This document shows positions 10,201 through 62,630 of a stretch of DNA of 64,000 bases, one piece after another. The notes under the pieces are model-generated. The model made no database searches. It saw only the letters and a program-made list of their open reading frames with translations, and was not told the DNA's origin. This stretch comes from a virus. The translations under genes and the position numbers were made by a program. The DNA lies in IMG/VR virus record IMGVR_UViG_3300047319_001031, positions 4,754 through 68,753 of that record. The stretch is one strand, 5' to 3'. Positions within the stretch are counted from its first letter, which is position 1. The number at the start of each line of letters is the position of its first letter.

Positions 10201-13200
10201 AAGGAAGAAGCAGACCTCGCCATGAAGTCGTTGTCTGCTGATCAGAAAGCGCGCTGGCAGGCGCGAGTGGAGCGGATGGCGGCGTCGGCCAAACTCATGG
10301 ACGAGATGGCCACCATTCGGGACGAAATCGAAAAGAAGGACAAGAAGCGAGAGGGCAGGACGGCACGCAACGTTCAGCAGGAAGCGGACGATCGGCTGGA
10401 CGACGAGCAAAAACTGCAAGCGATCGACGAGAGCGTTAAGGGCTGGGTGAAAGTCACCAGCGAGTTGGGTACGCACTGGGTGGTGGAAGGGCACGAAAAG
10501 CAAGTGCTCGATGCGATGGCTGCAGCTGCCAATCGTGATGCGATCCAGAGCCGCGGATTGTCAGGGATCTCCGACGCCGCGCTGGGTGCCAAAGTGGCTT
10601 TGACGCCGCACGCTGGCACCATCATGGAACACCTCGCCAAGACGCACAACAATCCGTTGATGCGCGTCGTGGCCAAGATGCTCGCCAAAGCCAATCCGAA
10701 CGCCGAGATCGTCGAGATTCCGGGTGCTGCGTTCAATGGCGGTCGCTATGTGCCATCGAGCCACAGGATTGAAATCGGTCGCGGTGGCATGAACCCGATT
10801 ACGTTGATGCATGAGACGGTGCACTCGCTCGCGCATGCAGCGATCTATCGCGCCATGGACAATCTCACTCGACCGTTCGCTGAACTGCACCCGCAAGAGC
10901 GAAAGGAAATGGAAGGGCTGCAGGTTATTCGCAATGCGATGGATGCGTTCGCCAAGGTAGCCGACTACAGCCGTGAGGATCATCGGCTGGCGTTGGATAA
11001 CGAGCACGAATTTCTGGCCGAAGCTCTGAATAACCCGCACATTCAGGAAGCATTGGGTGGCCGGTCCGGCTGGTATGGACGAGTCGTGAATTGGGTGCGC
11101 TCGTTGTTCGGCAAGGATGCGATCAACCAGACGGATTTCGAAAAGCTGATGGACGTTACACCGTCGCTGTTCGGTAGTCCGAATCGCAGCCTTACGGAAG
11201 TGTTCAACAGCAACCTTAATCGGGCCGAGAAGATTCCCGGTTCGCCGCCGCAGTTGATTGGGGAGACGAAGGCCGCGTTCTCCAAGGCCGCTGAGCTGAT
11301 GTCACAGGCCCGCAAATTGGTGCCCTCGGACCTGGATCTGAAGGCGCTTGCCTTGTGGCTTAAGGGCACGACGGTCAACAATAAGCAGCACATGCTGCGT
11401 AATTATCGCGAGCGGGTGGTTCGAGAATTCCCGAAAGTGGCGCCCCTATTCGACCGGGTGATTGCTGCGCATGACGCTATTCAACGGGTGACCCAGAGTC
11501 GCAATGCCGGTACGCAGCATTTGATGAATGCACCGGGAGAAGGAAACGATCAGGTACGCGAAGCGGCCAAGTTCGCACACGAGAATAAACAGCAGGCACG
11601 GGAGATGTTCGAACTGCAACGTCGTGAACGTGACGCGGGGGTATTTTCCGGCGACACATGGAAGCAGGCTGAGGCACGTGGCGTTACCCGAGACATGTTC
11701 AACAGTCCGCTCGCTGTCGAAAACCGGACCAAGATGGCAGCCATGCGTGCGCGCGATCTCGCGCGTTTCGAAAAGGAATTTGCTGCAGCCAAAAACCTGA
11801 ACCCAGCGCTTACCAAAGACACGTGGAATGGCCCGCTTACGGCAACTCGTGTGTACGACCACATGGCTACCTATCATGAGCTGACGCTGCAGCGCACCGC
11901 CATGGAGCAGTTGGCAGCGATGCGCAAGACGTGGGGTCTGAACACTGACCCGAGTCTTTACTGGAAGGCGCATACCTACGGTAAAGACAACCGGGCGATT
12001 ACCGATCCGCGTGTACAGCTGCAGAATGTGAAGGCTGCCATTGCGAGATCGCGCGCTGCGACGGCTGCCGCAATAGAAAAAGCGGGCTTTGATCCGAAGT
12101 CCAAGTTTGGTCAGGACGTCACTTCCTACCGTGAAGCGTCCGAGTCGATGCTCAACGAAGCCAATCGACAGGCCAATGTTCCGTACTCACCTCGTACGCG
12201 TCCGGGCGAATTTTTCCTGCACGCTGAGATTGCCGATAAGCCCGGACTCTACGAGCGTGTGCGTTCGATTGTGCGCCCTGAGTTTGATCCCAAAAATCCC
12301 AATGCCGGTGGTCTCGGTCGCGACATGGGACCCGAGCTGAAGGGCGGCAGCCGCACGATTCGCATGCACTTCGACAATGAAGGGCAGCTGAAATATGCGG
12401 AGCAGCGGCTGCAAGCGTTGCGCGATGAGGGAGCGTTTCACACCAAGGCGAAGGAGGGTTTGCCGAGTGAGGACACGTTTGCTTCGGGTACGGTCATTGG
12501 CGATGCCAAACCGCATGAGGGTGCTACTGCAGGCTGGGTGCGCGCGTTCGAAAAACGTATTGATGACAACCCGGACTGGAAGGGCGACGTCAAACAGCAA
12601 ATGAAGCAGGAGGTGCGGCAGGCGTACATCAACAGTTTGACCGAGATGAATCCGCTCAAGGCGCTAAAACACGCCGACAAATCGGCTGGTGCCAGCACTG
12701 ACATGGTGCGCGGATACTCCGATCGTTTGCAGCGTGGTACCACCCAGTTGTCGGCTATTCGTGCCGCATCGCTTATGGGTGATGCGATGAATCAGCTTAA
12801 TAATGCGATGGGGGAAATTGAAAAGCAGCCGGCGAATTTTACCGAGCATAAAAATAAACTTGCGGTATTTGCGACGGAAGCCAAACGTCGCGTTGACGAT
12901 ACGCGGACCGCGGTCAATACGCCGTTTCGGGATGCCATCAGGGCCATCGCAGCGCCGTTCCGACTGGCGCTTTCACCTGCGTATCTGATGATGACCGCGT
13001 ACCAACCGTGGCAAATGACGCTGCCGTGGCTTGGTGGCAAGCACGGCTACGTCACAAGCGCGGCGACCATGGCACGTAACTACGGTGTCTCGCACGCGAT
13101 GATGAGCGCCATGATCACGGACGCGTATCAAAACAGTTCCGGCACGAGCAAATTCCAGAAGCTCGTTGATGCCGCTAATCCCGCGGCGTACTTCAGCAAC

Positions 13201-14676
13201 ATCAAGCGAGCAGACGGCACGTACTTGTTTGATGGAGCGAAGCTGGAAGCGGTCAATCGGCTTGCGGAGTCTGGTCTGACTGCGTTCGGTCAGTACAACC
13301 AGATCTGGCGTCCGCAAACGACCGAAGGATTCGAGGCCGCGAAAGGTGGGCTGCAGCAAGCCAATCGTCTTGCGTCGCTGCTTCCGCATTACGTCGAGAT
13401 GTCGAATCGCATCGTGGCGTACCTGTCTGCACACGAGCTATATCTCACCAAGGGCATCAAGTACGCGGAGGGGGCTACCAAGGCAGAGCGGGCGAAAGCG
13501 CGCGACGACATGATGAACGCCGCGTCGGCGGAACAGAAACGGGCGGCAGAGGAATACGCACTCGGCATGATCCGTGATACGGACGGTGATCATTCGCAAG
13601 GCAATATCGCGCGCATGTTCGGACGGCACGGCTTTATTGGCGGATCGACGCCACTGGTTGTCGGCTTCGGTCAGTACGATCTGCAGATGGTCGAGTCGAT
13701 GATCCGCAGCATGGTTACAGCAGCGGGTAGGGGCGACATTAAGAACACAGGAGCCAAGGTCGCTGCGAAGCAACTGGCCGGCGTCGTCGCGATGACATCA
13801 CTCATGGCCGGTACGCTGGGCGCACCGTTCATGGGACTCATGACCGGCCTGTGGAATCGTCTTGGTTCGATGTTTCAGGATGATGCCGACACGCCACCAG
13901 ACTTCGAGAAAAGCTGGCGTGACGCGATGGAAGGAATTTTCGGTGAGAAGGGTGGCGAGATTGTGTCGCGAGGTCTGCCACATCTGCTCGACTTCGACAT
14001 GAGCCAGCGCTCCGGTTATCAGGATCTCGCGCCGTTTACTAACTTCCTCACTGATCGTCAGAAGATCGACGACACGATCAAAACGCAGGCGATGAATTTT
14101 CTCGGCCCAGCCGTGGGCGTGGGTGTGGGGGTCGCCACAGGTTCAGCTGCTGCCATTCGTGGCAACTGGCCGCAAGCCATTGACGATGCGTTGCCAGCGT
14201 TTGCTCGCAATCTTTTCAAGGCGGGGCGTTTGGCGGCGTATGGGTATGAGCGCAAGAGTGATGGCAATGCGCCGATTCCGTTGCATGTGTCGACATGGAA
14301 CGTGGTCATGCAGGCGGGTGGTTTTGGTTCGGCAGCAAAAGAAGAAGAAGGAGAGATGCAGAATTATTGGAACGTCAACCAAGCCATCATGCAGCAGCGG
14401 ATTGCCAAGATTCGCAACAAGTGGCTGGTTGCGCAGGATCACGGTGATGCTGCTGGTGTGGGCGATGCAATGGAAGATCTTGTTCACATCGCTGAGGTAC
14501 AGCCGCAGTACGCAGGTGCTCCTAGCTCGGTCGGACCAGCGTACAAGGCGCGACAGCAGGCGGTGGCGCTGGGTCAAATGACTGGTGGTGTAGGAGTGCA
14601 CAAACGTGCCTTGCCGTTCTTCATGCAGTTTCAGGGTGCCAATCACTACCCTGAGCTGGCAGCACCGAACTACTGA
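7243..14676 (+). CDS. giant internal virion (polyvalent-type) protein with zincin HExxH motif
   Basis: 2477 aa; MHETVHS...EHEFLAEA; PYSPRTRPGEF resembles the PLxRFG motif; hydrophobic Gly/Ala termini. Start is GTG, exact start uncertain. Confidence 0.75.
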   Translation: MPTPDDYPQLQPLPFTASPETTAFVRRAMANMPPPPQPVAPVPPTRPNSLLTDIGHGFAGGAMVDLPEMIGHAAQAFTPDDSAVNRLGASMVKFGKEREELPQYQTTGAFGAGARFVVPALGGLAATAAAAPVVGTTAAGALSTAALGALFGGSTYQDIKERGLAAGTDPDVVHAQAVKGGLVQGIGQGLAQMVGGRVLAGAGGALVNKVIAKGGVDNAIQSFTNPGFLKPFGKTMLEMAGVQLPLQAGTSAAMNEIEEGAGINTGQTSWEAAKASLAPTAAMTMLLSPVGAWGVRASNKVKARTAELVSGTDPTATQEQRKVALAAMAKEMRKTAPLQDVTEWQQQAELAILNDKPVGMKADFKYTPDAEPTPPLALPGPRTALPSAVPLEQAGGTAEQAADENAARIQAARDAEEERLAALRGGPPTEPPAEPPGPGGAGPGGVPPMEESAAAATARTPKDKIAAQVGAQVGLQGEPTAREIPPRQTLLERVPRAPESTRLLDLPQEATKQEQVDDLKKNFLPTAPKDLIARLIGPLEEMPAKIKQLWTEKGGETSDATYVKHLGDLYKRITGEEINAEGMKDEGAARNEPSEVAPEERARTEPEPAPVQAEPEAAPRPVEVAQAQGDAGTGGEARAAAQEPALTKEAKAKAAKAANDAEVTGSVTDLRQYRAQDKATRQEAESLVAEAREALTTGQLSLEEVEAARGATPLDTMRNLNTVLAKIRNKGRAGAANDEPAPVPKQTKEEKAKAAKAAKVSEETRHEPPTAEEGARALAEGQPADEGIFPRAGGTDAVIPGQEERGGEPQGGTGGGEAAGAGAGDRTVGVAEGGTEAQGGEQNAQVREQRRADNRRFRAHGDLAAYDAKTQALIAEANALEKRDPESPDLRRKRLEIGRRMNEGRKELHRRAIDANAEADRVRDKWKEPGWDAGNALYAMPNALNENNHADTLSFLAARELLGEKLSDEEKALLSNRGIEKKGTRAKEEADLAMKSLSADQKARWQARVERMAASAKLMDEMATIRDEIEKKDKKREGRTARNVQQEADDRLDDEQKLQAIDESVKGWVKVTSELGTHWVVEGHEKQVLDAMAAAANRDAIQSRGLSGISDAALGAKVALTPHAGTIMEHLAKTHNNPLMRVVAKMLAKANPNAEIVEIPGAAFNGGRYVPSSHRIEIGRGGMNPITLMHETVHSLAHAAIYRAMDNLTRPFAELHPQERKEMEGLQVIRNAMDAFAKVADYSREDHRLALDNEHEFLAEALNNPHIQEALGGRSGWYGRVVNWVRSLFGKDAINQTDFEKLMDVTPSLFGSPNRSLTEVFNSNLNRAEKIPGSPPQLIGETKAAFSKAAELMSQARKLVPSDLDLKALALWLKGTTVNNKQHMLRNYRERVVREFPKVAPLFDRVIAAHDAIQRVTQSRNAGTQHLMNAPGEGNDQVREAAKFAHENKQQAREMFELQRRERDAGVFSGDTWKQAEARGVTRDMFNSPLAVENRTKMAAMRARDLARFEKEFAAAKNLNPALTKDTWNGPLTATRVYDHMATYHELTLQRTAMEQLAAMRKTWGLNTDPSLYWKAHTYGKDNRAITDPRVQLQNVKAAIARSRAATAAAIEKAGFDPKSKFGQDVTSYREASESMLNEANRQANVPYSPRTRPGEFFLHAEIADKPGLYERVRSIVRPEFDPKNPNAGGLGRDMGPELKGGSRTIRMHFDNEGQLKYAEQRLQALRDEGAFHTKAKEGLPSEDTFASGTVIGDAKPHEGATAGWVRAFEKRIDDNPDWKGDVKQQMKQEVRQAYINSLTEMNPLKALKHADKSAGASTDMVRGYSDRLQRGTTQLSAIRAASLMGDAMNQLNNAMGEIEKQPANFTEHKNKLAVFATEAKRRVDDTRTAVNTPFRDAIRAIAAPFRLALSPAYLMMTAYQPWQMTLPWLGGKHGYVTSAATMARNYGVSHAMMSAMITDAYQNSSGTSKFQKLVDAANPAAYFSNIKRADGTYLFDGAKLEAVNRLAESGLTAFGQYNQIWRPQTTEGFEAAKGGLQQANRLASLLPHYVEMSNRIVAYLSAHELYLTKGIKYAEGATKAERAKARDDMMNAASAEQKRAAEEYALGMIRDTDGDHSQGNIARMFGRHGFIGGSTPLVVGFGQYDLQMVESMIRSMVTAAGRGDIKNTGAKVAAKQLAGVVAMTSLMAGTLGAPFMGLMTGLWNRLGSMFQDDADTPPDFEKSWRDAMEGIFGEKGGEIVSRGLPHLLDFDMSQRSGYQDLAPFTNFLTDRQKIDDTIKTQAMNFLGPAVGVGVGVATGSAAAIRGNWPQAIDDALPAFARNLFKAGRLAAYGYERKSDGNAPIPLHVSTWNVVMQAGGFGSAAKEEEGEMQNYWNVNQAIMQQRIAKIRNKWLVAQDHGDAAGVGDAMEDLVHIAEVQPQYAGAPSSVGPAYKARQQAVALGQMTGGVGVHKRALPFFMQFQGANHYPELAAPNY
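8996..9181 (+). CDS. possible nested +1-frame Lys/Pro-rich protein (61 aa)
   Basis: AAGGA 7 nt before the ATG; inside the low-complexity part of the giant ORF. Confidence 0.35.
   Translation: MKAPLVTSPVKLPPKSVHGPNPNQPPFKLSPKLPPVLSKWLKRKGMPEPGAKLAQLRKNLR
9629..9781 (+). CDS. nested +1-frame small basic protein (50 aa)
   Basis: AGGAGGT at 9618-9624; MPLFPGKKNVGANLKAELAAGKPRGQALAIALS resembles a common phage small-protein pattern. Confidence 0.65.
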   Translation: MPLFPGKKNVGANLKAELAAGKPRGQALAIALSASRRGAPKPKAGSKTPK

Positions 14677-38011: not shown

Positions 38012-38176
38012 CTATCGTGGACCGTTGATCGAACATGGAAAACGTTTCAGCTTCACTCCCCCTCTCGACCATGACAGCGGACCCTTGTCTCCCATGGTGG
38101 TTATCGTTCGTCCTAATAGTTTTCCTCCTGAGTAAGAGTGCCCGCTTCTGATCAGGTAGTAGGGCATCAGGATCAC
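38012..38176 (-). CDS. MI-head Ser/Arg/Gly-rich micro-ORF (54 aa)
   Basis: MILMPYYLIRSGHSYSGG...; GTGA overlap with the exonuclease stop. Confidence 0.45.
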   Translation of the reverse strand: MILMPYYLIRSGHSYSGGKLLGRTITTMGDKGPLSWSRGGVKLKRFPCSINGPR

Positions 38177-44417: not shown

Positions 44418-44564
44418 TCACTTCGGCCATCTTCCTGAGCGTGAGTGTTGCCACGACCAAGGCATAGGTTGAGATCCGCCTGTTCGTGACGCACCGTACG
44501 GCCATGTGCCTGACTTCGACACGGACAGCATCCACTTCCATCGCCAAGGCGGAAGGAAGATCAC
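44418..44564 (-). CDS. MI-head Ser/Arg/Trp micro-ORF (48 aa)
   Basis: MIFLPPWRWKW...WSWQHSRSGRWPK; GTGA overlap. Confidence 0.55.
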   Translation of the reverse strand: MIFLPPWRWKWMLSVSKSGTWPYGASRTGGSQPMPWSWQHSRSGRWPK

Positions 44565-44698
44565 CGCGTCGACTCCGATCGGATGCGCGGGCTCGACCGA
44601 GACCGGCACCACGACCAGCACACCGGGCCGGTGCGCGATGCACAGCGTGATAGGCGCTCCAACATGGTCCGGGTCACCCAGCCGGGGAAGCGGATCAT
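44561..44698 (-). CDS. MI-head Ser/Arg micro-ORF (45 aa)
   Basis: MIRFPGWV...WSWCRSRSSPRIRSESTR; ATGA overlap. Confidence 0.55.
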   Translation of the reverse strand: MIRFPGWVTRTMLERLSRCASRTGPVCWSWCRSRSSPRIRSESTR

Positions 44699-44826
44699 CG
44701 CCAGCTCACTGATTTCGCCGTGGCTCGCCCCCTTGCCGCTCCTGACCACGACCACGCCTGCCCTCGGAACGACGAGACGTCCTTCCGCTTGTTACCCTTT
44801 GGTGTGACAGGAAGTAGAAGGATCAC
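44695..44826 (-). CDS. MI-head Ser/Arg micro-ORF (43 aa)
   Basis: MILLLPVTP...AWSWSGAARGR...SVSWR; GTGA overlap. Confidence 0.5.
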   Translation of the reverse strand: MILLLPVTPKGNKRKDVSSFRGQAWSWSGAARGRATAKSVSWR

Positions 44827-45271: not shown

Positions 45272-45568
45272 TTAGTCGGGTACCTCTGTTGCCGGTGGTA
45301 TTGCCACCGACCCTACGATTTGCCCGGCGTGCATAATTGCCACTTCCGGTGCAATTATAGATTGCGTGCGACAAAAGGCAAGTATGTCAGCTATTGTAGT
45401 ATCCAACCCTACAAGCTCAACAAGTGGCGGGGTGGCTCTTACGAGGGTCAACCGGTTGGCCCCCCGGAAGGCGTCGACGCCCATCGCGACGCATAGGCGG
45501 GTCAGCCGAGTCTCCGTCCTAGTAGCTCGCGCTAGTATTTCTTGTAGCATGTTGTGGTCATTTGCCAT
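45272..45568 (-). CDS. hypothetical protein
   Basis: AAAGGA RBS; RTETRLTRL. Confidence 0.6.
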   Translation of the reverse strand: MANDHNMLQEILARATRTETRLTRLCVAMGVDAFRGANRLTLVRATPPLVELVGLDTTIADILAFCRTQSIIAPEVAIMHAGQIVGSVAIPPATEVPD

Positions 45569-45740
45569 GTTGCTTTCCTTTGGTAAATGCTGATCTATCG
45601 TGGCTACCGGATAGAGATGTAGAAAAAGACCACGCGTGCATCGAGCACCACAGTTTAGTAGAGCCCGAGTGCGATCGCGAGACCCGTACGGGCAGCAGCT
45701 TAGTGTTCCGGCATATCAGCCATGGGGGCAGGGGGATCAT
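45558..45740 (-). CDS. MI-head Ser/Arg micro-ORF (60 aa)
   Basis: MIPLPPWLICR...SRSHSGS...WSFSTSLSGS. Confidence 0.55.
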   Translation of the reverse strand: MIPLPPWLICRNTKLLPVRVSRSHSGSTKLWCSMHAWSFSTSLSGSHDRSAFTKGKQHGK

Positions 45741-45895
45741 CGCTGCGTCTTTCTTCCTTGTTGCCTCGATCCCGAGTACGCCATTGAACGTGCTCCATGC
45801 CACGATGCAAACCCCGACGTGCGTCGCGTTGCCGATCCTGATCGAGACGCTCGGGGTGCCCGTTGCGTAACGGGCCAAAACAGAATCAGGATCAT
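45737..45895 (-). CDS. MI-head Ser/Arg micro-ORF (52 aa)
   Basis: MILILFWP...SRSGS...YSGSR. Confidence 0.55.
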   Translation of the reverse strand: MILILFWPVTQRAPRASRSGSATRRTSGFASWHGARSMAYSGSRQQGRKTQR

Positions 45896-46035
45896 CGCGG
45901 CCCCGATTTCGATTGAACATACGATCGCGATCTAGCTAGGCCATTTTTTGTTCCTGACATTGACCATGGACGTTTGACCACGCCCGATCCTGAACGTGAC
46001 CCTCTTGCATTCCACCATCGAGGAATAAAAATCAC
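45892..46035 (-). CDS. MI-head Ser/Arg micro-ORF (47 aa)
   Basis: MIFIPRWWNARGSRSGSG...RSRSYVQSKSGPR. Confidence 0.55.
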   Translation of the reverse strand: MIFIPRWWNARGSRSGSGVVKRPWSMSGTKNGLARSRSYVQSKSGPR

Positions 46036-53174: not shown

Positions 53175-54050
53175 TTAGTTGGGTATCAGCACTGCGATGC
53201 GCGCCGCCAGAGCCTCAGCCTTGCGCTGCCGCTCCAGCCGGAACATATCGCTGTCCTTCAGATCCTTCCGCGTTACGCCATCCACCAGCGACACCGCTTC
53301 CGCCGCCAGTGCATCGATGCGAGGATCACGTGCGATGTTCAAGCGCTGTGCCGCTGCGCCCATGTTGCGCACGTTCTCGATCAGCGAGTCGTAGATTTTC
53401 TTGACGTCGCCATCGGTGTACGCCTTGAGCTGCTTGGCCATGTGCTGTACTGGCGTCAGCAACTCGGTGAACGCGTGGCTGATGCTCGCGTTGTACACCT
53501 TCTCCTGCTCTTCCTTCAGGCTGGCCTCGATCTCGGCCCGGACATGCGCCGGTATCTCGGTCAGCACCCGCACGTCGTTCGCATTCGGCAGCGGCTGCAC
53601 TGCCAAGCGCAACGCAAACCTAGCCCGCACGTGTTCCCACGCCGGGTAGTCGTTCGGATCGAACATGTCGCGCAACGTCTCCCGCATGGTGGCGATCTTG
53701 CCCGGGTACACGACCTCGAACGCATCGAGCAGCGGTTCCAGCCCGGCTTCCTTGTCGCCGAAGTCGGTCATCAGCTCCATGTGATTCTCGGCCTTGCCCA
53801 CCCGTACGCCCCGGGCCTCACCCCACGGCGCCGTGTGCAGGTAGAACCACGACCGGGTGCCACCGATCCAGCTGGCCACCGCCTTCAGCTCGTCGCAGTC
53901 GGGCAGGATCAGCTTGTTGAAGTTGCCCGCATCGGTGCTGTCACTCACCCCGTTGGCGACCTTGGCTTGGGACGTAACCCTCTTATCCAGCTTGCGCGCC
54001 GTCCACGTTGGCGCGTTAAGGCTGTACATCAGCAGCGACGTCAATTCCAT
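53175..54050 (-). CDS. DUF3150-like helical protein
   Basis: WTARKLD...T.PW...FDPNDYP; between AAA and vWA genes. Confidence 0.6.
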   Translation of the reverse strand: MELTSLLMYSLNAPTWTARKLDKRVTSQAKVANGVSDSTDAGNFNKLILPDCDELKAVASWIGGTRSWFYLHTAPWGEARGVRVGKAENHMELMTDFGDKEAGLEPLLDAFEVVYPGKIATMRETLRDMFDPNDYPAWEHVRARFALRLAVQPLPNANDVRVLTEIPAHVRAEIEASLKEEQEKVYNASISHAFTELLTPVQHMAKQLKAYTDGDVKKIYDSLIENVRNMGAAAQRLNIARDPRIDALAAEAVSLVDGVTRKDLKDSDMFRLERQRKAEALAARIAVLIPN

Positions 54051-54069
54051 TTCCGACTCCTTTAGTTAG

Positions 54070-54089
54070 TTTGTGATACCTCTCACAAA
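54070..54089. promoter_or_regulatory. 20-bp palindromic operator-like site
   Basis: TTTGTGATACCTCTCACAAA. Confidence 0.75.
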
Positions 54090-54471
54090 ACGCGATGCGG
54101 CGTGAAGCCATCCACGGCCGCGCAATACATCAGTACGACTGGTATGCAATGCGTGTCATAGGCATAGCTTAGAAACATCTCGCCATCCCACAGAGCAACC
54201 TTGCCCGTCCAGCCATCGCCGTAATACCACGTACCTTGCACCAATCTTTCACGGGGTATGACGGTGTGTTCGACTGCGGTGCGCTCGGCCATGATCGGCC
54301 TCCTTCGGTTGCGGCTTGATTTCACATTCCGCCTTGCAGCGCTCGCAAAACTCAGCGCCGTAGGCGACCAGCTTGCTGCGATCGTTGATGGCAACCCGCG
54401 CATCGACATACACGCGCGAGCTGCCGCACCTCGTACAGATCCATTTCATGATGCACACTCCCAGAACTGCC

Positions 54472-55584
54472 TTACACCTCCGAACCGGACCCGCGCATCA
54501 GCCTGTTGATATGCGGCTGGCACATCCAGTCCTTGTACTCCTTGCTCACCTGAATGACGCCCATGGCTGCGTTCTCACTCTTGTCAATCCGTTCATTGAT
54601 CAGTCGCGTGAATGCATTCTGAAACTCGTGCTTGTACCGCGCCATGTACACCAACATCGGTTTGAACGTTTTCGGAGCGATGGTAAGGGCCAACATGTAG
54701 GTCAGGGCAAAGCACTCATCCATCCGTTCCGGTACTTTCGCCTTGTCTGGACGCTTGAGAATTTCCTCGATCGTGGCGAGGTTGTCCACCATGCTTAGAT
54801 AAGTTTCGAACGTTGCCGCCACACCTGAGCCCACGTTGCGTGCGATCTCGTCCGGTATCAGTGGTTCGTGTGTCTCGTCGACATCTTTCAGAATGCGGCT
54901 CACCTTGTCCCACGAGCGCAGGTTGGCCCAGATGCCCATCTTGCCTTCCTGCACCATGAGATCGTTGGCCTCGCGCTTCTCGTCGAACACCGTGGCGTAG
55001 TTGGACAGGCACGCCGGGTGCTTCATGAGGAACGCGGATACCTTCTCGTGGAAGTTATCCTTAGCCACATCGAGCGCGTACTCCGGATCGAATTCCAGCT
55101 CCACCGTCATGAACCGGCTCATGATGGCCCGGCTCTGCTGTTGTGCCTGACTGCGGTGCTTGAACCCGTTGCCATCCGCGACGAAGATGACGCCATCCGG
55201 AATCCGGAACCCACCCAGATCCTCGTGGTTGATCAGCTTCTGGAAACCGCGGCTGGTCTCGGCACTCATCAGCATCCACTCGCCGATGTAGATGATGCCG
55301 CGCATATCCGGCGTGTTGTACGCGTTCGGCAGTCGGCCATCGATCAGACGCAGGATGCTTCTGGCATCCATGTCCGGCATCGCCATGACCGTATCCGTTG
55401 GCGCCATCGTGCCACCGTCCATGCGTTGAAAGCAGAAATACGGATCAGCTGCTTTCTCTTCTTCGCCCACCTTGTTGATCATGGTGGTCTTGCCCAGCGC
55501 CGGCTCGCTGATGAGCAGCAAGTTGTACCGACACCGCAGCGCCCGTCTGACCAATGGGCGCACTTGGTTCATCGATGAAGCCAT
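54472..55584 (-). CDS. MoxR-like AAA+ ATPase
   Basis: SEPALGKT, IYIGE, DGN, SRF, RSW. Confidence 0.8.
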   Translation of the reverse strand: MASSMNQVRPLVRRALRCRYNLLLISEPALGKTTMINKVGEEEKAADPYFCFQRMDGGTMAPTDTVMAMPDMDARSILRLIDGRLPNAYNTPDMRGIIYIGEWMLMSAETSRGFQKLINHEDLGGFRIPDGVIFVADGNGFKHRSQAQQQSRAIMSRFMTVELEFDPEYALDVAKDNFHEKVSAFLMKHPACLSNYATVFDEKREANDLMVQEGKMGIWANLRSWDKVSRILKDVDETHEPLIPDEIARNVGSGVAATFETYLSMVDNLATIEEILKRPDKAKVPERMDECFALTYMLALTIAPKTFKPMLVYMARYKHEFQNAFTRLINERIDKSENAAMGVIQVSKEYKDWMCQPHINRLMRGSGSEV

Positions 55585-55614
55585 TACGTTTCTCCTTCGT
55601 TAGTAAATAAATGG

Positions 55615-55634
55615 TTTGTGATACCTCTCACAAA
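55615..55634. promoter_or_regulatory. 20-bp palindromic operator-like site
   Basis: TTTGTGATACCTCTCACAAA. Confidence 0.75.
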
Positions 55635-55660
55635 TAGTACTGCACTTACACTTGCACCTG

Positions 55661-55891
55661 CTACTGCTCATACCATCCATCCAGCCCGTATTGGTGATCG
55701 AGCTGATCGGATGTAAATCGATGTGCATCGTCGCGGCAATCGCCAAAGTAATCGGCAAGGTGGTACTCACTACAACAGCCACACTCGACTACTAGGACGG
55801 GCGGACTGAACCAGCTCTGCGTGTTCGATCGCGTCCGCGACCCTGACGTTGATCGGCACGTAGGGTAGGCGACAAAGGGTAGGAAGATCAT
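55661..55891 (-). CDS. MI-head micro-ORF fused to a Cys/acidic domain (76 aa)
   Basis: MIFLPF...RSTSGSRTRS then ECGCC..YH...GDCRDD. Confidence 0.55.
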   Translation of the reverse strand: MIFLPFVAYPTCRSTSGSRTRSNTQSWFSPPVLVVECGCCSEYHLADYFGDCRDDAHRFTSDQLDHQYGLDGWYEQ

Positions 55892-56043
55892 CGGCCATAC
55901 CTCGGACCACGACGACCACCAGAAAAAGAAGTGAAACTTTTGACGCCGCTAATGCGCGACTTTGATGTGGAAAAGTAATATCTAAATCGTGTCGTCGTGG
56001 TAACTCCGCGCGTGTTCGTTAGCCAGAGGGGTAGGGGGATCAT
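55888..56043 (-). CDS. MI-head Ser/Arg micro-ORF (51 aa)
   Basis: MIPLPLWL...; ATGA overlaps. Confidence 0.6.
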   Translation of the reverse strand: MIPLPLWLTNTRGVTTTTRFRYYFSTSKSRISGVKSFTSFSGGRRGPRYGR

Positions 56044-56204
56044 CGTGACCCTATTCTCGATGCGAACTTTGTCCATGGATATTTACTTCCCGAAAGCGAA
56101 TAGGGCTGACCACGCAACCCAGATTCTGACCAGCCGTAGTTGCGGCTCCTACCAGTAGCCTTCGAATACGAACCACTCGTTGCCCAATAGGGTAGGGGGA
56201 TCAT
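56040..56204 (-). CDS. MI-head Ser/Arg micro-ORF (54 aa)
   Basis: MIPLPYWATSGSYS... Confidence 0.6.
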   Translation of the reverse strand: MIPLPYWATSGSYSKATGRSRNYGWSESGLRGQPYSLSGSKYPWTKFASRIGSR

Positions 56205-56380
56205 CGCCCTCGATCTCCTGAATACGAACGATGCGAACCTTGGACTCTTGACCCGCTGTGTCGTTTGTAAAACGAACATGCACAGCCAGCACTGAGTGAC
56301 CACGTACGATGCGTTGTCGGGACCATGCGTGACTTGATCGTCATCGGATGTGCCAGCATGAAACCGGGGACGAGGATCAC
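56201..56380 (-). CDS. MI-head Ser/Arg micro-ORF (59 aa)
   Basis: MILVPGF... (GTG start). Confidence 0.55.
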   Translation of the reverse strand: MILVPGFMLAHPMTIKSRMVPTTHRTWSLSAGCACSFYKRHSGSRVQGSHRSYSGDRGR

Positions 56381-56574
56381 AATGTTCTCTTTCCCGAACG
56401 GAACCACGAAGCGTAGCGCATACCACTAAGCGAGTAACACTTCGATCGGTACACGGATTCACTTGCCGTGCTGGTTATGGATACCGCACGCCCTCGGCAA
56501 GTAGACCATGCGCCTCTACCAGAAGCAGCCCAACAGAACGAAAGGTTGGACCCGTAATGGCTAAGCAGGATCAT
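56377..56574 (-). CDS. MI-head Ser/Arg micro-ORF (65 aa)
   Basis: MILLSHY... Confidence 0.55.
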   Translation of the reverse strand: MILLSHYGSNLSFCWAASGRGAWSTCRGRAVSITSTASESVYRSKCYSLSGMRYASWFRSGKRTL

Positions 56575-56855
56575 TGCGGCACCAGCAGCAACTGATACGG
56601 TTCCACATCCAACGCATAAGCGATCGCAGCAACAGCATCCATGCTCACGCCGTATTCTCCGGCGAGAATGTAGCCAATGGTTCGAGCCGACACCAGCTTG
56701 CCCTTCTTGATCCCGGATAAATAGCGGGCCTGCAAACGCTTAACGCCTATGCGTTTTGCTTTCATCAGTGCCTTGATGTTGTCAGCCAGCTGGCGACGAT
56801 AGTCGATCGGCATTGAACGACCACACGTTGGACAAATGTTAGCTTTGGTTTTCAC
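56571..56855 (-). CDS. XRE-family HTH regulator with CxxC
   Basis: CPTC; LADNIKAL...VSARTI..I..G....SMD.V..IA.AL.V.P..LL. Confidence 0.75.
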   Translation of the reverse strand: MKTKANICPTCGRSMPIDYRRQLADNIKALMKAKRIGVKRLQARYLSGIKKGKLVSARTIGYILAGEYGVSMDAVAAIAYALDVEPYQLLLVPQ

Positions 56856-57019
56856 TATGTCTCCCTCGATTCCGATTTCCAAACGGATGCTGACCTAGAT
56901 CCAAACCTTGACTTCGGTGGTGACCGATGGTCTCGTCCTGACCGTGAGTACCAGTACATCATCGTCCTTGATCGAGACCACGACCGTGCATCATCTAGCC
57001 AGCTACCGAGCAGGATCAT
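56855..57019 (-). CDS. MI-head Ser/Arg micro-ORF (54 aa)
   Basis: MILLGSWLDDARSWSRSR... Confidence 0.6.
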   Translation of the reverse strand: MILLGSWLDDARSWSRSRTMMYWYSRSGRDHRSPPKSRFGSRSASVWKSESRET

Positions 57020-57168
57020 GACGAGTGTGCCCTCGATGTGAACATCGACCCCGAGCGCGATCGATTCCGTCTCTGCGTTGCCGTACCACACGACGAACTC
57101 CTGCGCCGTATTCTCTTTGCACCTGAGCGTGACTGCAATCCCAGCCGCCAGAAGGGTAGGGGGATCAT
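57016..57168 (-). CDS. MI-head Ser/Arg micro-ORF (50 aa)
   Basis: MIPLPFWRLGLQSRSG... Confidence 0.6.
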   Translation of the reverse strand: MIPLPFWRLGLQSRSGAKRIRRRSSSCGTATQRRNRSRSGSMFTSRAHSS

Positions 57169-57335
57169 GATGATTGCGATCTCGTCCACGCCCCCAGCAC
57201 CGACTGCACACGACCGTTGCCTTTCCGCCCTCCAGATATTGATGCCCATACTGATCCGGACGCAGCCCCCGATGACGACATGCATTTTTGCTGGGAACGT
57301 ACTACCGACAACAACCACGGATGCAAGGGGATCAT
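57165..57335 (-). CDS. MI-head Ser/Gly micro-ORF (56 aa)
   Basis: MIPLHPWLL... Confidence 0.6.
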   Translation of the reverse strand: MIPLHPWLLSVVRSQQKCMSSSGAASGSVWASISGGRKGNGRVQSVLGAWTRSQSS

Positions 57336-57475
57336 TGCACCACCGGCCACCATGACTTACGCGAGCGCCATTGCGACCACATCCGCCCAACGGAATGCGA
57401 TTGCCCCAACAAGCCGGACCTCCCACGCGATCGAGAGTACCGTTTGCCCCGCCATACGGGGTGTAGCAAGATCAT
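57332..57475 (-). CDS. MI-head Ser/Arg micro-ORF (47 aa)
   Basis: MILLHPVWRGKRYSRSRGRSG...WSQWRSRKSWW. Confidence 0.6.
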   Translation of the reverse strand: MILLHPVWRGKRYSRSRGRSGLLGQSHSVGRMWSQWRSRKSWWPVVQ

Positions 57476-57494
57476 TTGTGAGAGGTCTCACAAA
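57475..57494. promoter_or_regulatory. 20-bp palindromic operator-like site
   Basis: TTTGTGAGAGGTCTCACAAA. Confidence 0.75.
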
Positions 57495-57497
57495 CCG

Positions 57498-57857
57498 TTA
57501 CTTCTGCACCCGCTGCAGCTTCGACACGATCTTCGCATCGACGATGCACCCGCGGTTGACGATCACGTGGCCATCAGGGAACGGCTCGCACTCGTTGAAC
57601 GTCTCGGTCTTGAGCGCATCGGCGAACCGGCCCGTGTCGGGAATCCACGCTGCATCTTCCAGCAGCAGCTCGTGCTCGCTGATGGCGATCAGCCGGCCGA
57701 CGTTGGTCATGGTGACGGTGCGAATGAAGTAGATCGCCCCGAGGCGCCACAGCCCGATGTGCTTGGGATCACTGGGGATGATCTCGGTCTGCTGCGTCAG
57801 CTTCTCAGTGATGATCGCGTCGACCTCGGCTTGGGTGTACGTCGCTTTCTTTGCCAT
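57498..57857 (-). CDS. small beta-barrel (Sm-like?) protein
   Basis: G.IYFIRTVT...GRL...ELLLEDAAWIPDTGRF...EP...VNRG.IVD; ACTAAAGGA leader. Confidence 0.75.
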   Translation of the reverse strand: MAKKATYTQAEVDAIITEKLTQQTEIIPSDPKHIGLWRLGAIYFIRTVTMTNVGRLIAISEHELLLEDAAWIPDTGRFADALKTETFNECEPFPDGHVIVNRGCIVDAKIVSKLQRVQK

Positions 57858-57924
57858 GATATTTTTCCTTTAGTTAAGGTTGCTGCAGGCTACACGCTCG
57901 AATGAACGTGCACCCAAGAGGAAC

Positions 57925-58080
57925 CTATTGCGACCTTGCTCTCTTCATCATCTTATTTGATTCCGATACTGACCCTGATCTCCTTCCCGTACGGCACCCG
58001 AACACTGACCACATTCGTTTCACTCCTGTTCGTGACCCAGACGCGTTGCGCCACATCTGCCACGGCGAAAATAGGATCAT
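57925..58080 (-). CDS. MI-head Ser/Arg micro-ORF (51 aa)
   Basis: MILFSPWQMWRNASGSR... Confidence 0.6.
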   Translation of the reverse strand: MILFSPWQMWRNASGSRTGVKRMWSVFGCRTGRRSGSVSESNKMMKRARSQ

Positions 58081-58217
58081 CTCGACCTCGACCCACACCA
58101 CGAATACACCCGTGACGCAGAGTGCGATGTATGCATGGTTGTTTTATTGCCACGTGACCGGGACTTTATGCTCTGCCCCTTGCGATTGTGGAATTTCCAC
58201 GGGTTGAACAGGATCAT
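58077..58217 (-). CDS. MI-head Ser/Arg micro-ORF (46 aa)
   Basis: MILFNPWKF...YSWCGSRSR. Confidence 0.6.
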   Translation of the reverse strand: MILFNPWKFHNRKGQSIKSRSRGNKTTMHTSHSASRVYSWCGSRSR

Positions 58218-58399
58218 CCCACTCCCTTTTCACCACGTGACACCGATCGTGATTTGTCCCCTGATGTTGAAGCTGGGGCAATGCGGTTGCGTGACTGGGT
58301 GAACGATCGCGCTACTTGACCGAAGCGCGACCACTCCACTGGCTTTGACCGTGCACCTGAGCGGGACATGCGAACGTGCCAACGTTGTATCAGGATCAT
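58214..58399 (-). CDS. MI-head Ser/Arg micro-ORF (61 aa)
   Basis: MILIQRWHVRMSRSGARS... Confidence 0.6.
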   Translation of the reverse strand: MILIQRWHVRMSRSGARSKPVEWSRFGQVARSFTQSRNRIAPASTSGDKSRSVSRGEKGVG

Positions 58400-58759
58400 T
58401 GCGCGCGACTACTAGGTCTCTTCACGCGCGTTGCTGATCAGCAGGCTGATCAGGTTCTCCAGATCACGATGCTGATGCGCTGTGATTGGCGTGTGCTGAT
58501 AGATGATGCGTGCCATGTTGTTGATGACGTTGGCTGACACAACAACGTCGGTGTTGCTCGGTAGGGTAGGGTTCACAACGTCGCCCCATCGATCTCGATC
58601 AGCTCATCGTTCCCGGGCTCATCCTGCTCGGCCGGGAATGTGCACGACCCAATGGTGACCGTGATCTCATGCGCGTGATCATCGATCCACTTGCGTGCCT
58701 CAGCCTCACTCGTTGCCCTAATGCGCATCGTCGTGAACAGCTTCACATCAAAGCCGTAC

Positions 58760-59275
58760 TCATGCGTCGTCATCATCATCCCCTTCTTCATCATCACCAA
58801 ACTCCAGATACAATGCGACCACGCCCATCTCGTTAGTGATGGTGAAGCATCGATAGCTACCGTCACCAAAGGCTGAGCTGCTGACCACGCCGCTGTCATC
58901 GATCACGCCCCAGCCATGGCCCGGGTGCGCTGTGGTAGCGCAACACTTGCCATAGAAGCTGGCCTTATCGTCGTACTCACCACCATGATGCTGGTTGAAA
59001 TACTCAGCATCGAAGAACCCTGCTTGGCCTGAGTCCACGCCAACATCGATGTCCGAGTCCACCCACAATTCATCCGTTGTCGGCATCGGAACCTTGTCGT
59101 GCCATGCGAAGATCCGCATCTGGCGCAGCCCCCACTGACCTTGGTGTTCCGTTTCCACATTACAAAACCAGCGGCCCTTGGCCACGTTCTCGATCGTGCC
59201 AGCGCACCACGTGTCGGGCTTGTAGCATGGGTCAGTGACCCGCACCTTGCCTGACTTGATTGTGAAGCTAAGCAT
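58760..59275 (-). CDS. DUF4241-like protein
   Basis: VTDPCY, GVDSGQAGFFD, SAFGDGSY. Confidence 0.75.
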   Translation of the reverse strand: MLSFTIKSGKVRVTDPCYKPDTWCAGTIENVAKGRWFCNVETEHQGQWGLRQMRIFAWHDKVPMPTTDELWVDSDIDVGVDSGQAGFFDAEYFNQHHGGEYDDKASFYGKCCATTAHPGHGWGVIDDSGVVSSSAFGDGSYRCFTITNEMGVVALYLEFGDDEEGDDDDDA

Positions 59276-59286
59276 TCCGTTCCCCT

Positions 59287-59538
59287 TCAGTTAGTAACAG
59301 CCTCATGCAGCGGCAGCTGCACAGGTGTGTAAGCGCACGTGATGATCTGCCGGTACGCAGTGGTAACCCAAGCGCGCTCGATCCATACCGGACCACAACG
59401 CATCTCGCCCATGGTGTCACTCCACACTGCCTCGCCTAACAACAGCTTGGTAGGAGTGAGCGCGGTCAGCTTGCCTGTCGCTGTCAACGTGGGTGTACTA
59501 ACCACGTACACCGCCCCGACTTGCCAGTCATTCTTCAT
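59287..59538 (-). CDS. possible paralog of 57498-57857
   Basis: GAVYVVSTPT...TGKL...LLL.EAVW. Confidence 0.6.
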   Translation of the reverse strand: MKNDWQVGAVYVVSTPTLTATGKLTALTPTKLLLGEAVWSDTMGEMRCGPVWIERAWVTTAYRQIITCAYTPVQLPLHEAVTN

Positions 59539-59558
59539 TGCTGTCCTTTAGTCAGTGG

Positions 59559-59578
59559 TTTGTGATACCTCTCACAAA
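59559..59578. promoter_or_regulatory. 20-bp palindromic operator-like site
   Basis: TTTGTGATACCTCTCACAAA. Confidence 0.75.
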
Positions 59579-59769
59579 TTGTTGATGGTACCGAGCGGCT
59601 GCGCCTTGCCCTGCGCCCGCAACGCGAGCTTGTGCATCAGCAACCCTGCCTTGATGACGTCATCCACATCGTTGTCGAATGCGTCAGTTTTGATGTAGCT
59701 ACGCAACGCTGCGATCAGCATCTTCGCCTCGTTGCTGTTCACCTGCACGTGATCGAACCGCGTTTCCAT
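59572..59769 (-). CDS. hypothetical protein
   Basis: ACTGAAAGGA leader. Confidence 0.6.
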   Translation of the reverse strand: METRFDHVQVNSNEAKMLIAALRSYIKTDAFDNDVDDVIKAGLLMHKLALRAQGKAQPLGTINNL

Positions 59770-59782
59770 GATTTCCTTTCAG

Positions 59783-60163
59783 TTATGGTGCTACGTCCTC
59801 GTCCACTCGCTCGATGATCTTGGCCTGCACCGCAGCCGGGATGCTGTCCCATTCCTCACTGGACAGATCGAAGTAGGCCATGATGTTGGCCACGCCCCAT
59901 GTTTCTATGGGCACGGTCTCAACGAATCCATCCATGCGCTCCTGCAATTCCACACGCTTGACGTCAGCCAGCTCGGGAAATTCCTTGCGGTCCTCGTCGG
60001 TCACGTTGAACTTGGCCACACCATCGTCGTCACTGTCGGCGCCGCCATGCATCATCAGATCGTAGAAGTACAGCGCATACACCGGCTCACCCTCGAACTT
60101 GCCGGGTGAGATGATGACGCCATCCTTTACCTTGTATTGTGCTTCGATCTCAGCGCGTGTCAT
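59783..60163 (-). CDS. hypothetical protein
   Basis: SPGKFEGEP. Confidence 0.65.
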   Translation of the reverse strand: MTRAEIEAQYKVKDGVIISPGKFEGEPVYALYFYDLMMHGGADSDDDGVAKFNVTDEDRKEFPELADVKRVELQERMDGFVETVPIETWGVANIMAYFDLSSEEWDSIPAAVQAKIIERVDEDVAP

Positions 60164-62601: not shown

Positions 62602-62630
62602 ATTATACCACAATACCACACTAATGTCAA
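62602..62630 (-). promoter_or_regulatory. consensus sigma70 early promoter
   Basis: TTGACA-17 nt-TATAAT with extended -10 TG. Confidence 0.85.

Follow-up and report, generated by a model that had tools for sequence, protein, structure and literature searches.

An amplified family of small Ser-rich micro-ORFs associated with a predicted Sm-like gene in an uncultured soil phage

The 68,753 bp record IMGVR_UViG_3300047319_001031, which represents an uncultured soil phage, carries 18 small basic Ser-rich micro-ORFs of 43-76 aa, all on the minus strand of the 64-kb stretch of DNA that was analysed (hereafter, the window). Twelve of them lie at 58399-55661, and the others form two triplets at 46035-45558 and 44826-44418. 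The units and the genes set among the first twelve are given below.

58214..58399, minus strand: unit 1, 61 aa, head MILIQRW; lacking in the related strain of run X5
58077..58217, minus strand: unit 2, 46 aa, head MILFNPW; ATGA overlap with the stop of unit 1
57925..58080, minus strand: unit 3, 51 aa, head MILFSPW; ATGA overlap with unit 2
57498..57857, minus strand: gene for a 119-aa protein with a predicted Sm/LSm fold, identified from relatives, a structure model and Foldseek PDB matches
57332..57475, minus strand: unit 4, 47 aa, head MILLHPVW; 20 nt behind the Sm-like gene, the canonical partner position
57165..57335, minus strand: unit 5, 56 aa, head MIPLHPW; ATGA overlap; partly skipped or replaced in the X5 strain
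57016..57168, minus strand: unit 6, 50 aa, head MIPLPFW; ATGA overlap
56855..57019, minus strand: unit 7, 54 aa, head MILLGSW; ATGA overlap; missing in one X5 contig
56571..56855, minus strand: ordinary gene within the array, 94 aa; contains a CxxC motif and a region resembling HTH_26; unit 8 starts on its stop
56377..56574, minus strand: unit 8, 65 aa, head MILLSHY
56201..56380, minus strand: unit 9, 59 aa, GTG start, head (M)ILVPGF
56040..56204, minus strand: unit 10, 54 aa, head MIPLPYW
55888..56043, minus strand: unit 11, 51 aa, head MIPLPLW
55661..55891, minus strand: unit 12, 76 aa, head MIFLPFV; acidic C-terminal extension, pI 4.8
45892..46035, minus strand: unit 13, 47 aa; GTGA overlap with the stop of an unrelated 270-aa gene, not Sm-like
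45737..45895, minus strand: unit 14, 52 aa, head MILILFW
45558..45740, minus strand: unit 15, 60 aa, head MIPLPPW
44695..44826, minus strand: unit 16, 43 aa; GTGA overlap with the stop of an unrelated gene, not Sm-like
44561..44698, minus strand: unit 17, 45 aa, head MIRFPGW
44418..44564, minus strand: unit 18, 48 aa, head (M)IFLPPW

The first-pass annotation of this DNA had described 12 consecutive minus-strand ORFs of 46-76 aa between 55661 and 58399. All of them were present at these coordinates, but the run is not unbroken, as two ordinary genes (57857-57498 and 56855-56571) lie inside it, and the count of 12 members has to be raised to the 18 carried by the phage record. The observation that most starts fall on the previous stop was borne out: this was the case for 10 of the 12 units, with units 1 and 4 following gaps of 10 and 20 nt, and across the whole set 16 of 18 units begin on the stop of the preceding ORF via ATGA or GTGA. 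The 20-nt gap in front of unit 4 contains a palindrome. Unit 4 is also the only one of the 18 that has the Sm-fold gene directly upstream on the same strand; the upstream neighbours of the remaining 17 are other units, the HTH-like gene or unrelated genes, and the six units of the two triplets hang on genes that are not Sm-like. The Pfam HTH_26 match of the 94-aa gene (E 4.6e-4, 20.8 bits) was below the cutoff of 22. Below a consensus promoter at 62630-62602, the array occupies the minus-strand arm, a position that may point to the early expression proposed in the first-pass annotation. The micro-ORFs belong to the replication and early arm, the structural genes being on the opposite strand. 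The stop of unit 18 falls within a vestigial head, GTGATCTAA, after which there is a G+C hairpin. In a collection of 5.8 billion proteins only unit 12 (P0030) of the 18 units was present, which indicates that gene callers miss this family.

Across 965 codons the frame of the micro-ORFs was free of stops; multiplied over the units, the chances of this under dinucleotide shuffling come to about 7e-12. All 14 start-to-start spacings within runs were 2 mod 3. The motif RTGATCYYNYT was found 15 times, always on the minus strand, in comparison to 1.5 ± 1.25 times in 100 shuffles, and 13 of the 15 occurrences were heads of the family. Hence, the coincidence of head and stop coupling, for which a shuffling check had been proposed, is indeed enriched. 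SD-like tetramers preceded 11 of the 18 starts (4.3 ± 1.8 at random places). Within the head, nucleotide positions 1-8 were nearly fixed, T occupied position 11 in 18/18 units and TGG positions 19-21, whereas the wobble positions 9, 12 and 18 were free. Together, the stop-free frame, the 2 mod 3 spacings and the codon-wise conservation of the head show, at the level of sequence, that the micro-ORFs are read as proteins. The earlier description of coding units that keep their head while the body changes fast, and that are linked to one another by start/stop overlaps, was therefore supported, and we infer that the units are genuine translated paralogous micro-protein genes.

The predicted peptides share a seven-residue head, M-I-[LPF]-hydrophobic-x-P-W, with [LFIV] in the fourth position, followed by a strongly basic tail that is probably disordered and in which Ser tends to occupy every other position, with Arg, Trp, Gly or Lys in between. 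Their composition includes Ser (17.6%), Arg (13.0%), Gly (9.6%) and Trp (5.1%), with only 2.7% of Asp plus Glu, and the pI was 10.3-12 in 18 of the 19 listed ORFs. Ser recurred with a period of two (lag-2 0.40 vs 0.19 in shuffled sequences, z 7.7; lag-1 0.05, z -5.3). S[WRG]S occurred 31 times compared to 10.0 ± 3.0 expected, yet Ser makes up 20% of the body residues and not 50%, so the tails are degenerate. Ser was encoded by TCN in 153 of 173 cases, and GGTC reached 13.9 per kb as opposed to 3.4 per kb in ordinary genes. Ser, Trp and Lys were 1.7-2.3 fold above the expectation from base composition, while Asp and Glu were depleted. However, the body composition correlated with that of the +1-frame reading of the phage's ordinary genes (r 0.81), so that the abundance of Ser, Arg and Trp may in part be due to origin and not to function. 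The bodies, which had been described as not alignable, were poorly alignable, but a weak alignment with a nearly invariant Gly was found.

The 119-aa protein encoded at 57857-57498 had 886 relatives. Its structure model (pLDDT 83.5) contained a helix at residues 9-24 and strands at 42-47, 51-59, 63-72, 97-101 and 105-111, and Sm/LSm chains made up the entire top 50 of the Foldseek matches in the PDB (best E 2.4e-4; TM 0.53-0.77 on the target). According to this model, the protein is an Sm/LSm fold composed of an N-terminal helix and a bent five-stranded sheet. PF22253 (DUF6948) gave no match at E up to 10 with the 119-aa protein, the 83-aa protein or two relatives. In the Atlas feature search a DUF6948 cluster appeared only at 0.82, which we regard as a lead only. 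When 50,697 phage records were searched by tblastn with the 119-aa protein, only one record, an uncultured one, was hit.

When the surroundings of the Sm-fold relatives were inspected in IMG/VR, a (Ser-Trp/Arg/Gly)n micro-ORF was found behind the Sm-fold gene in 74 of 79 loci, at -4 to +90 nt from its stop and in 59 cases via a 4-nt overlap; two chained peptide copies were seen in 2 loci (first count of the Sm-fold IMG/VR loci). The canonical head of these peptides, M-N-A-A-[VI]-L-R-[AT]-G-[FLYW]-D-x-S in the 74 loci, is not matched by the heads in the window. In 18 loci, a profile built from the 18 units weakly matched the sequence that directly follows the Sm-like gene (best E 5e-4), although the likeness to the canonical peptides sits in the low-complexity tail and may stem from composition alone. 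Given the Sm/LSm fold of the 119-aa protein and the (Ser-X)n ORF in 74/79 loci, the 18 ORFs probably represent, in diverged and amplified form, the (Ser-X)n peptide gene found beside the Sm-fold gene in many uncultured phages. The earlier statement that no described system matches the array holds in so far as the literature search found no paper on the Sm-fold and (Ser-X)n pair; it does not hold in the sense that the array would be without relatives.

The window was also compared with a related strain represented by contigs of run X5 from another metagenome, and the differences considered are those listed, beside which there are 47 further rows. For unit 4, seven differences were among those listed, and none of them changed a residue in the ORF frame, whereas all seven would be replacing in each of the other two frames (P 6e-5 to 3e-4). 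This silent-site result rests on one unit, and it implies that the unit 4 peptide has been held constant between the strains by selection. Thus, the term "hypervariable" used in the first-pass annotation is too strong at least for unit 4, the peptide of which is identical in the X5 strain despite seven listed nucleotide differences. The 94-aa HTH_26-like gene had at least 13 silent and at least 15 replacing differences among those listed. At the same time, the array itself differed between the strains. An X5 joint from 58208 to 58391, with 9 shared letters, skips 182 nt, the length of unit 1; in one contig, a joint from 56851 to 57016 skips 164 nt, the length of unit 7; and a joint from 57168 to 57325 spans part of unit 5, which is skipped or replaced. 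Units 1 and 7 are thus each missing from this strain as exact units, and the array varies in steps of whole units between the window and X5. The contigs of runs X2, X3 and X4 were identical to the window (0 differences).

The explanation that we consider the most probable, though with considerable room for doubt, combines translated paralogous micro-proteins, an amplified family of Sm partners, turnover of whole units, and RNA-binding tails that act with an Sm-like ring. As 16 of 18 starts lie on the preceding stop, a terminating ribosome could restart at the ATGA/GTGA overlaps, and whole runs would be read off minus-strand operons. The Sm-like gene lies inside the array, and unit 4 takes the partner position. 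The array would gain or lose whole units at the start/stop overlap in such a way that the reading chain stays intact. The shared head could be the part that docks on a common partner, the Sm-like ring being the most plausible one, and the basic Ser-alternating tails may bind RNA or drive RNA condensation during host takeover, comparable to the Arg-rich tails of eukaryotic Sm/LSm proteins but in the form of separate, exchangeable genes. The action of RNA-binding tails together with an Sm-like ring is our best guess for function. A more specific version, which we put forward tentatively and consider doubtful, is that 18 peptides with one docking head load in mixed sets on a single Sm-like ring and constitute a combinatorial ribonucleoprotein, or a scaffold for a condensate, by which RNA of the host or the phage is captured in the early phase of infection. 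The exchangeable set of RNA-binding tails would then evolve fast, because whole units could be gained or lost at the overlap without breaking translation.

Several features would also be expected if the units were translated spacers or a selfish cassette that spreads by recombination at RTGA overlaps and stays open only to keep downstream coupling, the peptide itself being functionless. Units are present or absent exactly at the overlaps, two triplets stand behind unrelated genes, the tails are poorly alignable, their composition is like that of the +1 frame of ordinary genes, and such ORFs are absent from five complete phage records that are linked to this phage by the ATPase. However, the exclusively silent listed differences in unit 4, the conservation of the head at the amino-acid level with free wobble positions, the Ser periodicity with the Ser/Trp/Lys enrichment and Asp/Glu depletion, and the retention of a related peptide gene beside the Sm-like gene in 74/79 loci make this reading unlikely. 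The peptides could alternatively be substrates of a modifying enzyme, i.e., a RiPP-like, phosphorylated or glycosylated library in which the head is a recognition leader and the Ser-rich tail the modified core. A fixed head with a variable Ser-rich body resembles precursor libraries, and there are many tandem paralogs. Nevertheless, we find this rather improbable, as the head has only about seven residues in contrast to the long conserved leader of RiPPs, there is no Cys or Thr pattern, no kinase, dehydratase, cyclase or radical-SAM family was detected among the neighbouring genes scanned, and the constant neighbour in other phages is an Sm-fold protein and not an enzyme.

Packaged internal peptides, for which the internal proteins of T4 provide an analogue, would likewise have a fixed N-terminal head (here a capsid-targeting signal), variable basic bodies that neutralise or accompany DNA, and several paralogs. 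We assign this a low probability: the genes are in the replication/early arm, while the structural genes are on the other strand, the head has no protease-site-like motif, and the association with the Sm-like gene would be left unexplained. A similarly low probability applies to a non-coding region in which the ORFs are incidental to a repeated structured RNA or to an RNA/DNA sponge of GGTC-rich words, e.g., for the Sm-like protein. GGTC does show a 4-fold enrichment, and GTCACG has a density of 3.4 per kb compared to 0 in ordinary genes; but the window contained no tRNA genes, the Rfam search of 54000-60000 (E up to 1) gave no match, the folding z-scores of the 18 units ranged from -1.78 to +1.55 (mean -0.26), and coding constraint is indicated by the frame staying open, by the spacings mod 3 and by the listed differences being silent only. 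Finally, a single larger gene split by frameshifts or assembly errors is exceedingly improbable: although the frame of the next unit reads ordinary-looking and the +2 frame is gene-like in codon-position base composition and fully open in 6/18 units, fragments of such a gene are excluded by the codon-shuffled level of stops in the other two frames (24 vs 24.9 ± 3.8, the +2 frame, with 6.3 fully open units expected, and 38 vs 40.7 ± 3.6) and by the identical contigs of the three other runs, the large genes elsewhere in the window are intact, and the relatives have no single gene at this place.

The array represents a clear case of copy number shifting by whole units at 4-nt start/stop overlaps. 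If the peptides act as proposed, the phage would have its own version of the Sm core and basic tail combination, divided among separate, amplified genes, and this would be a mode of RNA-binding assembly not known to have been described for bacteria or their viruses. The Sm-like partner family has hundreds of members in uncultured phages that are without annotation; because the family is so large, a function for either gene would annotate many genomes.

The closest system is the Sm-fold and (Ser-X)n pair itself. The array contains a gene of the same Sm-fold family; its peptides, likewise small and basic, have a tendency of Ser to recur at every second residue, Ser being encoded by TCN codons on GGTC-rich DNA, and chaining occurs by ATGA/GTGA overlap. 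In contrast, there are 18 copies here and usually one elsewhere, the head is M-I-[LPF]-x-x-P-W instead of M-N-A-A-[VI]-L-R-x-G-F-D, degenerate tails stand in place of pure dipeptide repeats, and six copies are placed behind unrelated genes. Among phage proteins, the small early proteins GoF, MotB.1 and Frd.2 of T4 have, like the 119-aa protein, a predicted LSm-like fold, and a role in RNA stability has been proposed for them (PMC12152347). The abstract of that work mentions no partner repeat peptide. The tblastn search of the 50,697 phage records found no sequence relation between these proteins and the 119-aa protein.

The RS domains of eukaryotic SR splicing factors are strongly basic, disordered and RNA-associated stretches of alternating Ser and Arg, and they are parts of large RRM proteins controlled by dedicated kinases. 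The phage peptides share the strong basicity and a tendency of Ser to alternate with Arg, and they would probably be disordered and RNA-associated as well, but they would be free and are rich in Trp and Gly. Basic low-complexity tails are also found in the eukaryotic Sm/LSm proteins SmB, SmD1, SmD3 and LSm4. The Sm proteins of Borgs carry tandem-repeat extensions, described as N-terminal units of 4-17 residues (PMC9879509). In both groups an Sm fold likewise goes with a disordered repeat region, for which docking of partners or of RNA is assumed. However, Arg-Gly differs from the Ser-X in the phage, and the tail there is fused to the Sm domain, whereas here the tail is encoded by a separate multi-copy gene, the putative partner of the Sm-like protein.

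The Ser/Arg-rich micro-ORFs on the minus strand of the window are real coding units that are chained through start/stop overlaps. The twelve ORFs recorded in the first-pass annotation have exactly the coordinates ascribed to them there, but the claim that they form one unbroken run was not borne out, as they fall into three runs with two ordinary genes between them. Six further members of the same family were found on this strand. A profile built from all 18 units recovered exactly those 18 in the whole record and nothing more at E values up to 1; the window covers 64,000 of the 68,753 bases of this single virus record.

Members of the micro-ORF family and the genes that separate its runs
58399-57925, minus strand, units 1-3 (run 1)
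57857-57498, minus strand, gene of the 119-aa Sm-like protein, an ordinary gene separating runs
57475-56855, minus strand, units 4-7 (run 2)
56855-56571, minus strand, gene of a 94-aa HTH-like protein that has a CxxC motif and resembles HTH_26 below the threshold, an ordinary gene separating runs
56574-55661, minus strand, units 8-12 (run 3)
46035-45558 and 44826-44418, minus strand, six further family members

A lone ORF at 38176-38012 was left out of the family, the family profile giving no match to it at E up to 1. This 54-aa ORF (38012-38176, minus strand) has a GTGATCCTG start that sits on the stop of a PD-(D/E)XK exonuclease gene.

The heads and their coupling, as described earlier, are patterned beyond chance when compared with shuffled sequence. 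The motif RTGATCYYNYT occurs 15 times, always on the minus strand, as against 1.5 ± 1.25 times in shuffled sequence, where 15 occurrences were reached in 0 of 100 shuffles; 13 of the 15 are family heads. Within runs, the start-to-start distance was 2 mod 3 in all 14 cases, and therefore each ORF terminates at the TGA inside the next (A/G)TGATC. Not a single stop was found in the ORF frame across 965 codons. After dinucleotide shuffling a mean of 5.3 of the 18 bodies were open, and none of 1000 trials left all 18 open; multiplying the open-frame chances of the single units gives about 7e-12. Read in the ORF frame, the head also varies as coding sequence does: nucleotide positions 1-8 hardly change and all 18 units have T as the second letter of codon 4, the wobble positions 9, 12 and 18 vary freely, and most units have TGG as codon 7. 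In addition, SD-like tetramers lie 4-16 nt upstream of 11 of the 18 starts, in comparison to 4.3 ± 1.8 at random places in units.

One alternative was dual coding or serial frameshifting of a larger gene. The +2 frame, which is the frame of the following unit, looks protein-like, and at each of the three codon positions its base composition is that of real genes. However, this explanation was ruled out by a control in which the codons were shuffled within each unit and the peptide composition was kept: the +2 frame contained 24 stops (24.9 ± 3.8 in the control) and was fully open in 6 units (6.3 expected). Thus, the protein look of this frame is a by-product of the Ser/Arg/Gly/Trp codons. A tRNA array, which the repeated head and the Ser/Arg/Gly/Trp reading first suggested to us, was rejected with 0 genes from ARAGORN and 0 Rfam matches. 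RNA folding of the 18 units revealed no excess (z from -1.78 to +1.55, mean -0.26).

Read as coding units, the 18 ORFs specify peptides of 43-76 residues with 17.6% Ser, 13.0% Arg, 9.6% Gly, 5.1% Trp and 2.7% Asp plus Glu. Their net charge ranges from +5.6 to +11.6 in 17 of 18 cases, unit 12 being the exception because of an acidic extension. When compared to the expectation from base composition, Ser (2.3-fold), Trp (2.1-fold) and Lys (1.7-fold) were over-represented and Asp, Glu, Leu, Ile and Pro were under-represented. The unit composition correlates with that obtained when the ordinary genes of the phage are read in the +1 frame (r 0.81), and part of it may reflect the origin of such sequences. 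The tails are not featureless: a Ser is followed two residues later by another Ser in 40% of cases (shuffles 19%, z 7.7) and by an adjacent Ser in 5% (z -5.3). Of 173 Ser codons, 153 are of the TCN type, and GGTC is enriched four-fold. The bodies had been described as not alignable; they align weakly, with an almost invariant Gly in an S-x-S-G context.

The array is present in public sequencing runs labelled rhizosphere or soil metagenome; none of the runs listed was an RNA run, which is neutral as to expression. Contigs of three runs (X2, X3 and X4) were identical to the window over the parts covered, so the array sequence is no assembly accident; stretches that X3 and X4 leave uncovered carry no meaning. 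A fourth run, X5, contains both the window's strain and a related one. The comparison with this related strain indicates that at least one unit peptide is under selection. Among the differences listed, on which all silent and replacing counts rest (47 rows of the comparison lie beyond them), seven fall in unit 4, the one unit that the count covers, and these change 0 residues in the ORF frame and seven in each of the other frames. With silent changes making up 25-32% of those possible, the chance that the unit 4 differences would be silent only is 6e-5 to 3e-4. In the Sm-like gene, 4 of 4 listed differences were silent. The HTH-like gene (56571-56855) is fast-evolving between the strains, with 13 silent and 15 replacing differences listed, and in the X5 contig it carries a 1-nt insertion together with a compensating 1-nt deletion (56742/56746).

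Moreover, units are gained and lost whole. One joint in the X5 contigs (58208 to 58391) skips 182 nt, which is the length of unit 1, with nine letters common at the joint, and another (56851 to 57016) omits 164 nt, equal to unit 7 in length. Judging from the coordinates, the second joint would put the second codon of the HTH-like gene directly after ATGA, so that in this strain the ATG start of the gene would coincide with the unit 6 stop. Other joints were seen at 57168 to 57325 and at 55634 to 55750; the whole-unit skips rest on the 182-nt and 164-nt joints. These skips imply that the array changes by whole units and that the chain is kept intact.

Searches for relatives of the array gave no match by blastn against 50,697 phage records, and in IMG/VR a 35-mer from unit 4 had 0 matches. 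With the 15-mer from the head, IMG/VR gave 13 single matches, of which 0 lay in a chain of such ORFs, and these were judged to be chance. Against 5.8 billion proteins the 18-unit profile detected only the window's own 76-aa ORF, and against 1.84 billion representatives it detected this ORF plus three long proteins with several matching stretches. In five complete related records the best match to the array ORFs had an E value of 0.017 and contained a stop, and at the loci of ATPase relatives (L001-L018) ordinary genes and no array were found upstream. Phages related to ours via the ATPase, namely these five records and L001-L018, are without the array.

The units are associated with an Sm-fold gene. 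A search of the protein collection gave 886 relatives of the 119-aa Sm-like protein at E values of 0.001 or below. Neither Pfam nor PHROG supplied a family for it, and its single match among the 50,697 deposited phage records was an uncultured record. Foldseek ranks 1-50 for its model (pLDDT 83.5) were occupied by Sm/LSm chains only. At 74 of 79 IMG/VR loci with relatives of this protein (L034-L112), a Ser-alternating ORF starts -4 to +90 nt from the stop of the Sm-like gene, and in 59 of the 74 the two are linked by a 4-nt overlap; at the other five (L035, L037, L043, L061 and L112) this partner was not found. The partner ORFs have a median length of 71 residues and the head M-N-A-A-[VI]-L-R-[AT]-G-[FLYW]-D-x-S. 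In 18 loci the profile of the window's units matched weakly right after the Sm-like gene, at E values of 5e-4 at best, and these matches sit in the tail and may come from composition. Among the Sm-like proteins closest to that of the window are those of L043 and L061 (67% and 65% identity), where a single coupled 69-aa Ser-rich ORF lies two genes downstream (4551-4760 in L043, from 4545 onward in L061). Its start, M-I-C-L-A-H-Y, recalls the unit 8 head M-I-L-L-S-H-Y, which provides a lead to a possible single-copy form of the window's head type. We consider it quite probable that the units are a real translated family related to the pair of Sm-fold gene and Ser-X peptide.

At loci L034-L112, the hexamer arrays of the (Ser-X)n ORFs can also be read without stops in the two remaining frames, which give (Gly-Arg)n and (Val-Ala/Gly)n, and some of these readings continue into the next real gene (e.g., L045, L062, L109); gene callers may wrongly extend neighbour genes at such ORFs. 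In the window, an 83-aa protein (59287-59538, minus strand) is 31% identical to the 119-aa protein; its alignment falls on the N-terminal half of the Sm-like family, and it is perhaps a shorter, second Sm-like paralog. No Ser-X ORF was found behind its gene.

The minus-strand arm contains all nine copies of a TGTGA-N6-TCACA palindrome with flanking T and A runs (50913, 54072, 55617, 57477, 59561, 60780, 62258, 62516 and 63887), the core of which resembles the CRP consensus. One copy occupies the 20 nt that separate the Sm-like gene from unit 4 and another comes just after unit 12; in the X5 strain, a copy is altered by a G>C change at 57484. The palindrome could be an operator for the HTH-like protein. 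A perfect promoter, TTGACA-17-TATAAT with a TG extension (62602-62630, minus strand, score 12 of 12), sits upstream of the whole arm. An N4-like identity of the phage, first read from about 23% identity of its ATPase to those of N4-like coliphages, was withdrawn because the C-terminal part of the 2477-aa ORF (7243-14676, plus strand) matches DarB-like/methylase proteins and not a virion RNA polymerase. Residues about 1780-2410 of this ORF resemble proteins of Rhizobium, Sinorhizobium, Pseudomonas and Microcystis phages that are annotated as DarB-like antirestriction or DNA methylase (21-28% identity).

As to how the array might work, translation would restart at the start/stop overlaps, and the common head would dock onto a common partner, most plausibly the Sm-like ring; a complex prediction for the Sm-like protein and unit 4 scored 0.00 and is neutral as to binding. 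Eukaryotic Sm/LSm proteins have basic tails, and by analogy the basic, Ser-alternating tails of the units could bind RNA or drive condensation. The analogy also draws on Borg Sm proteins, which carry repeat extensions (PMC9879509). Head docking together with RNA-binding tails is a tentative proposal, and we regard it as rather doubtful.

In the literature we found no description of the pair of Sm-fold protein and (Ser-X)n peptide or of such arrays. The described phage proteins nearest to the Sm-like protein are early proteins of T4 whose predicted fold is LSm-like and which may act in RNA stability (PMC12152347); no sequence link to them was found. The window adds a new head type, degenerate tails and dispersal behind unrelated genes, together with strain-level evidence for selection on one peptide and for the gain or loss of whole units.
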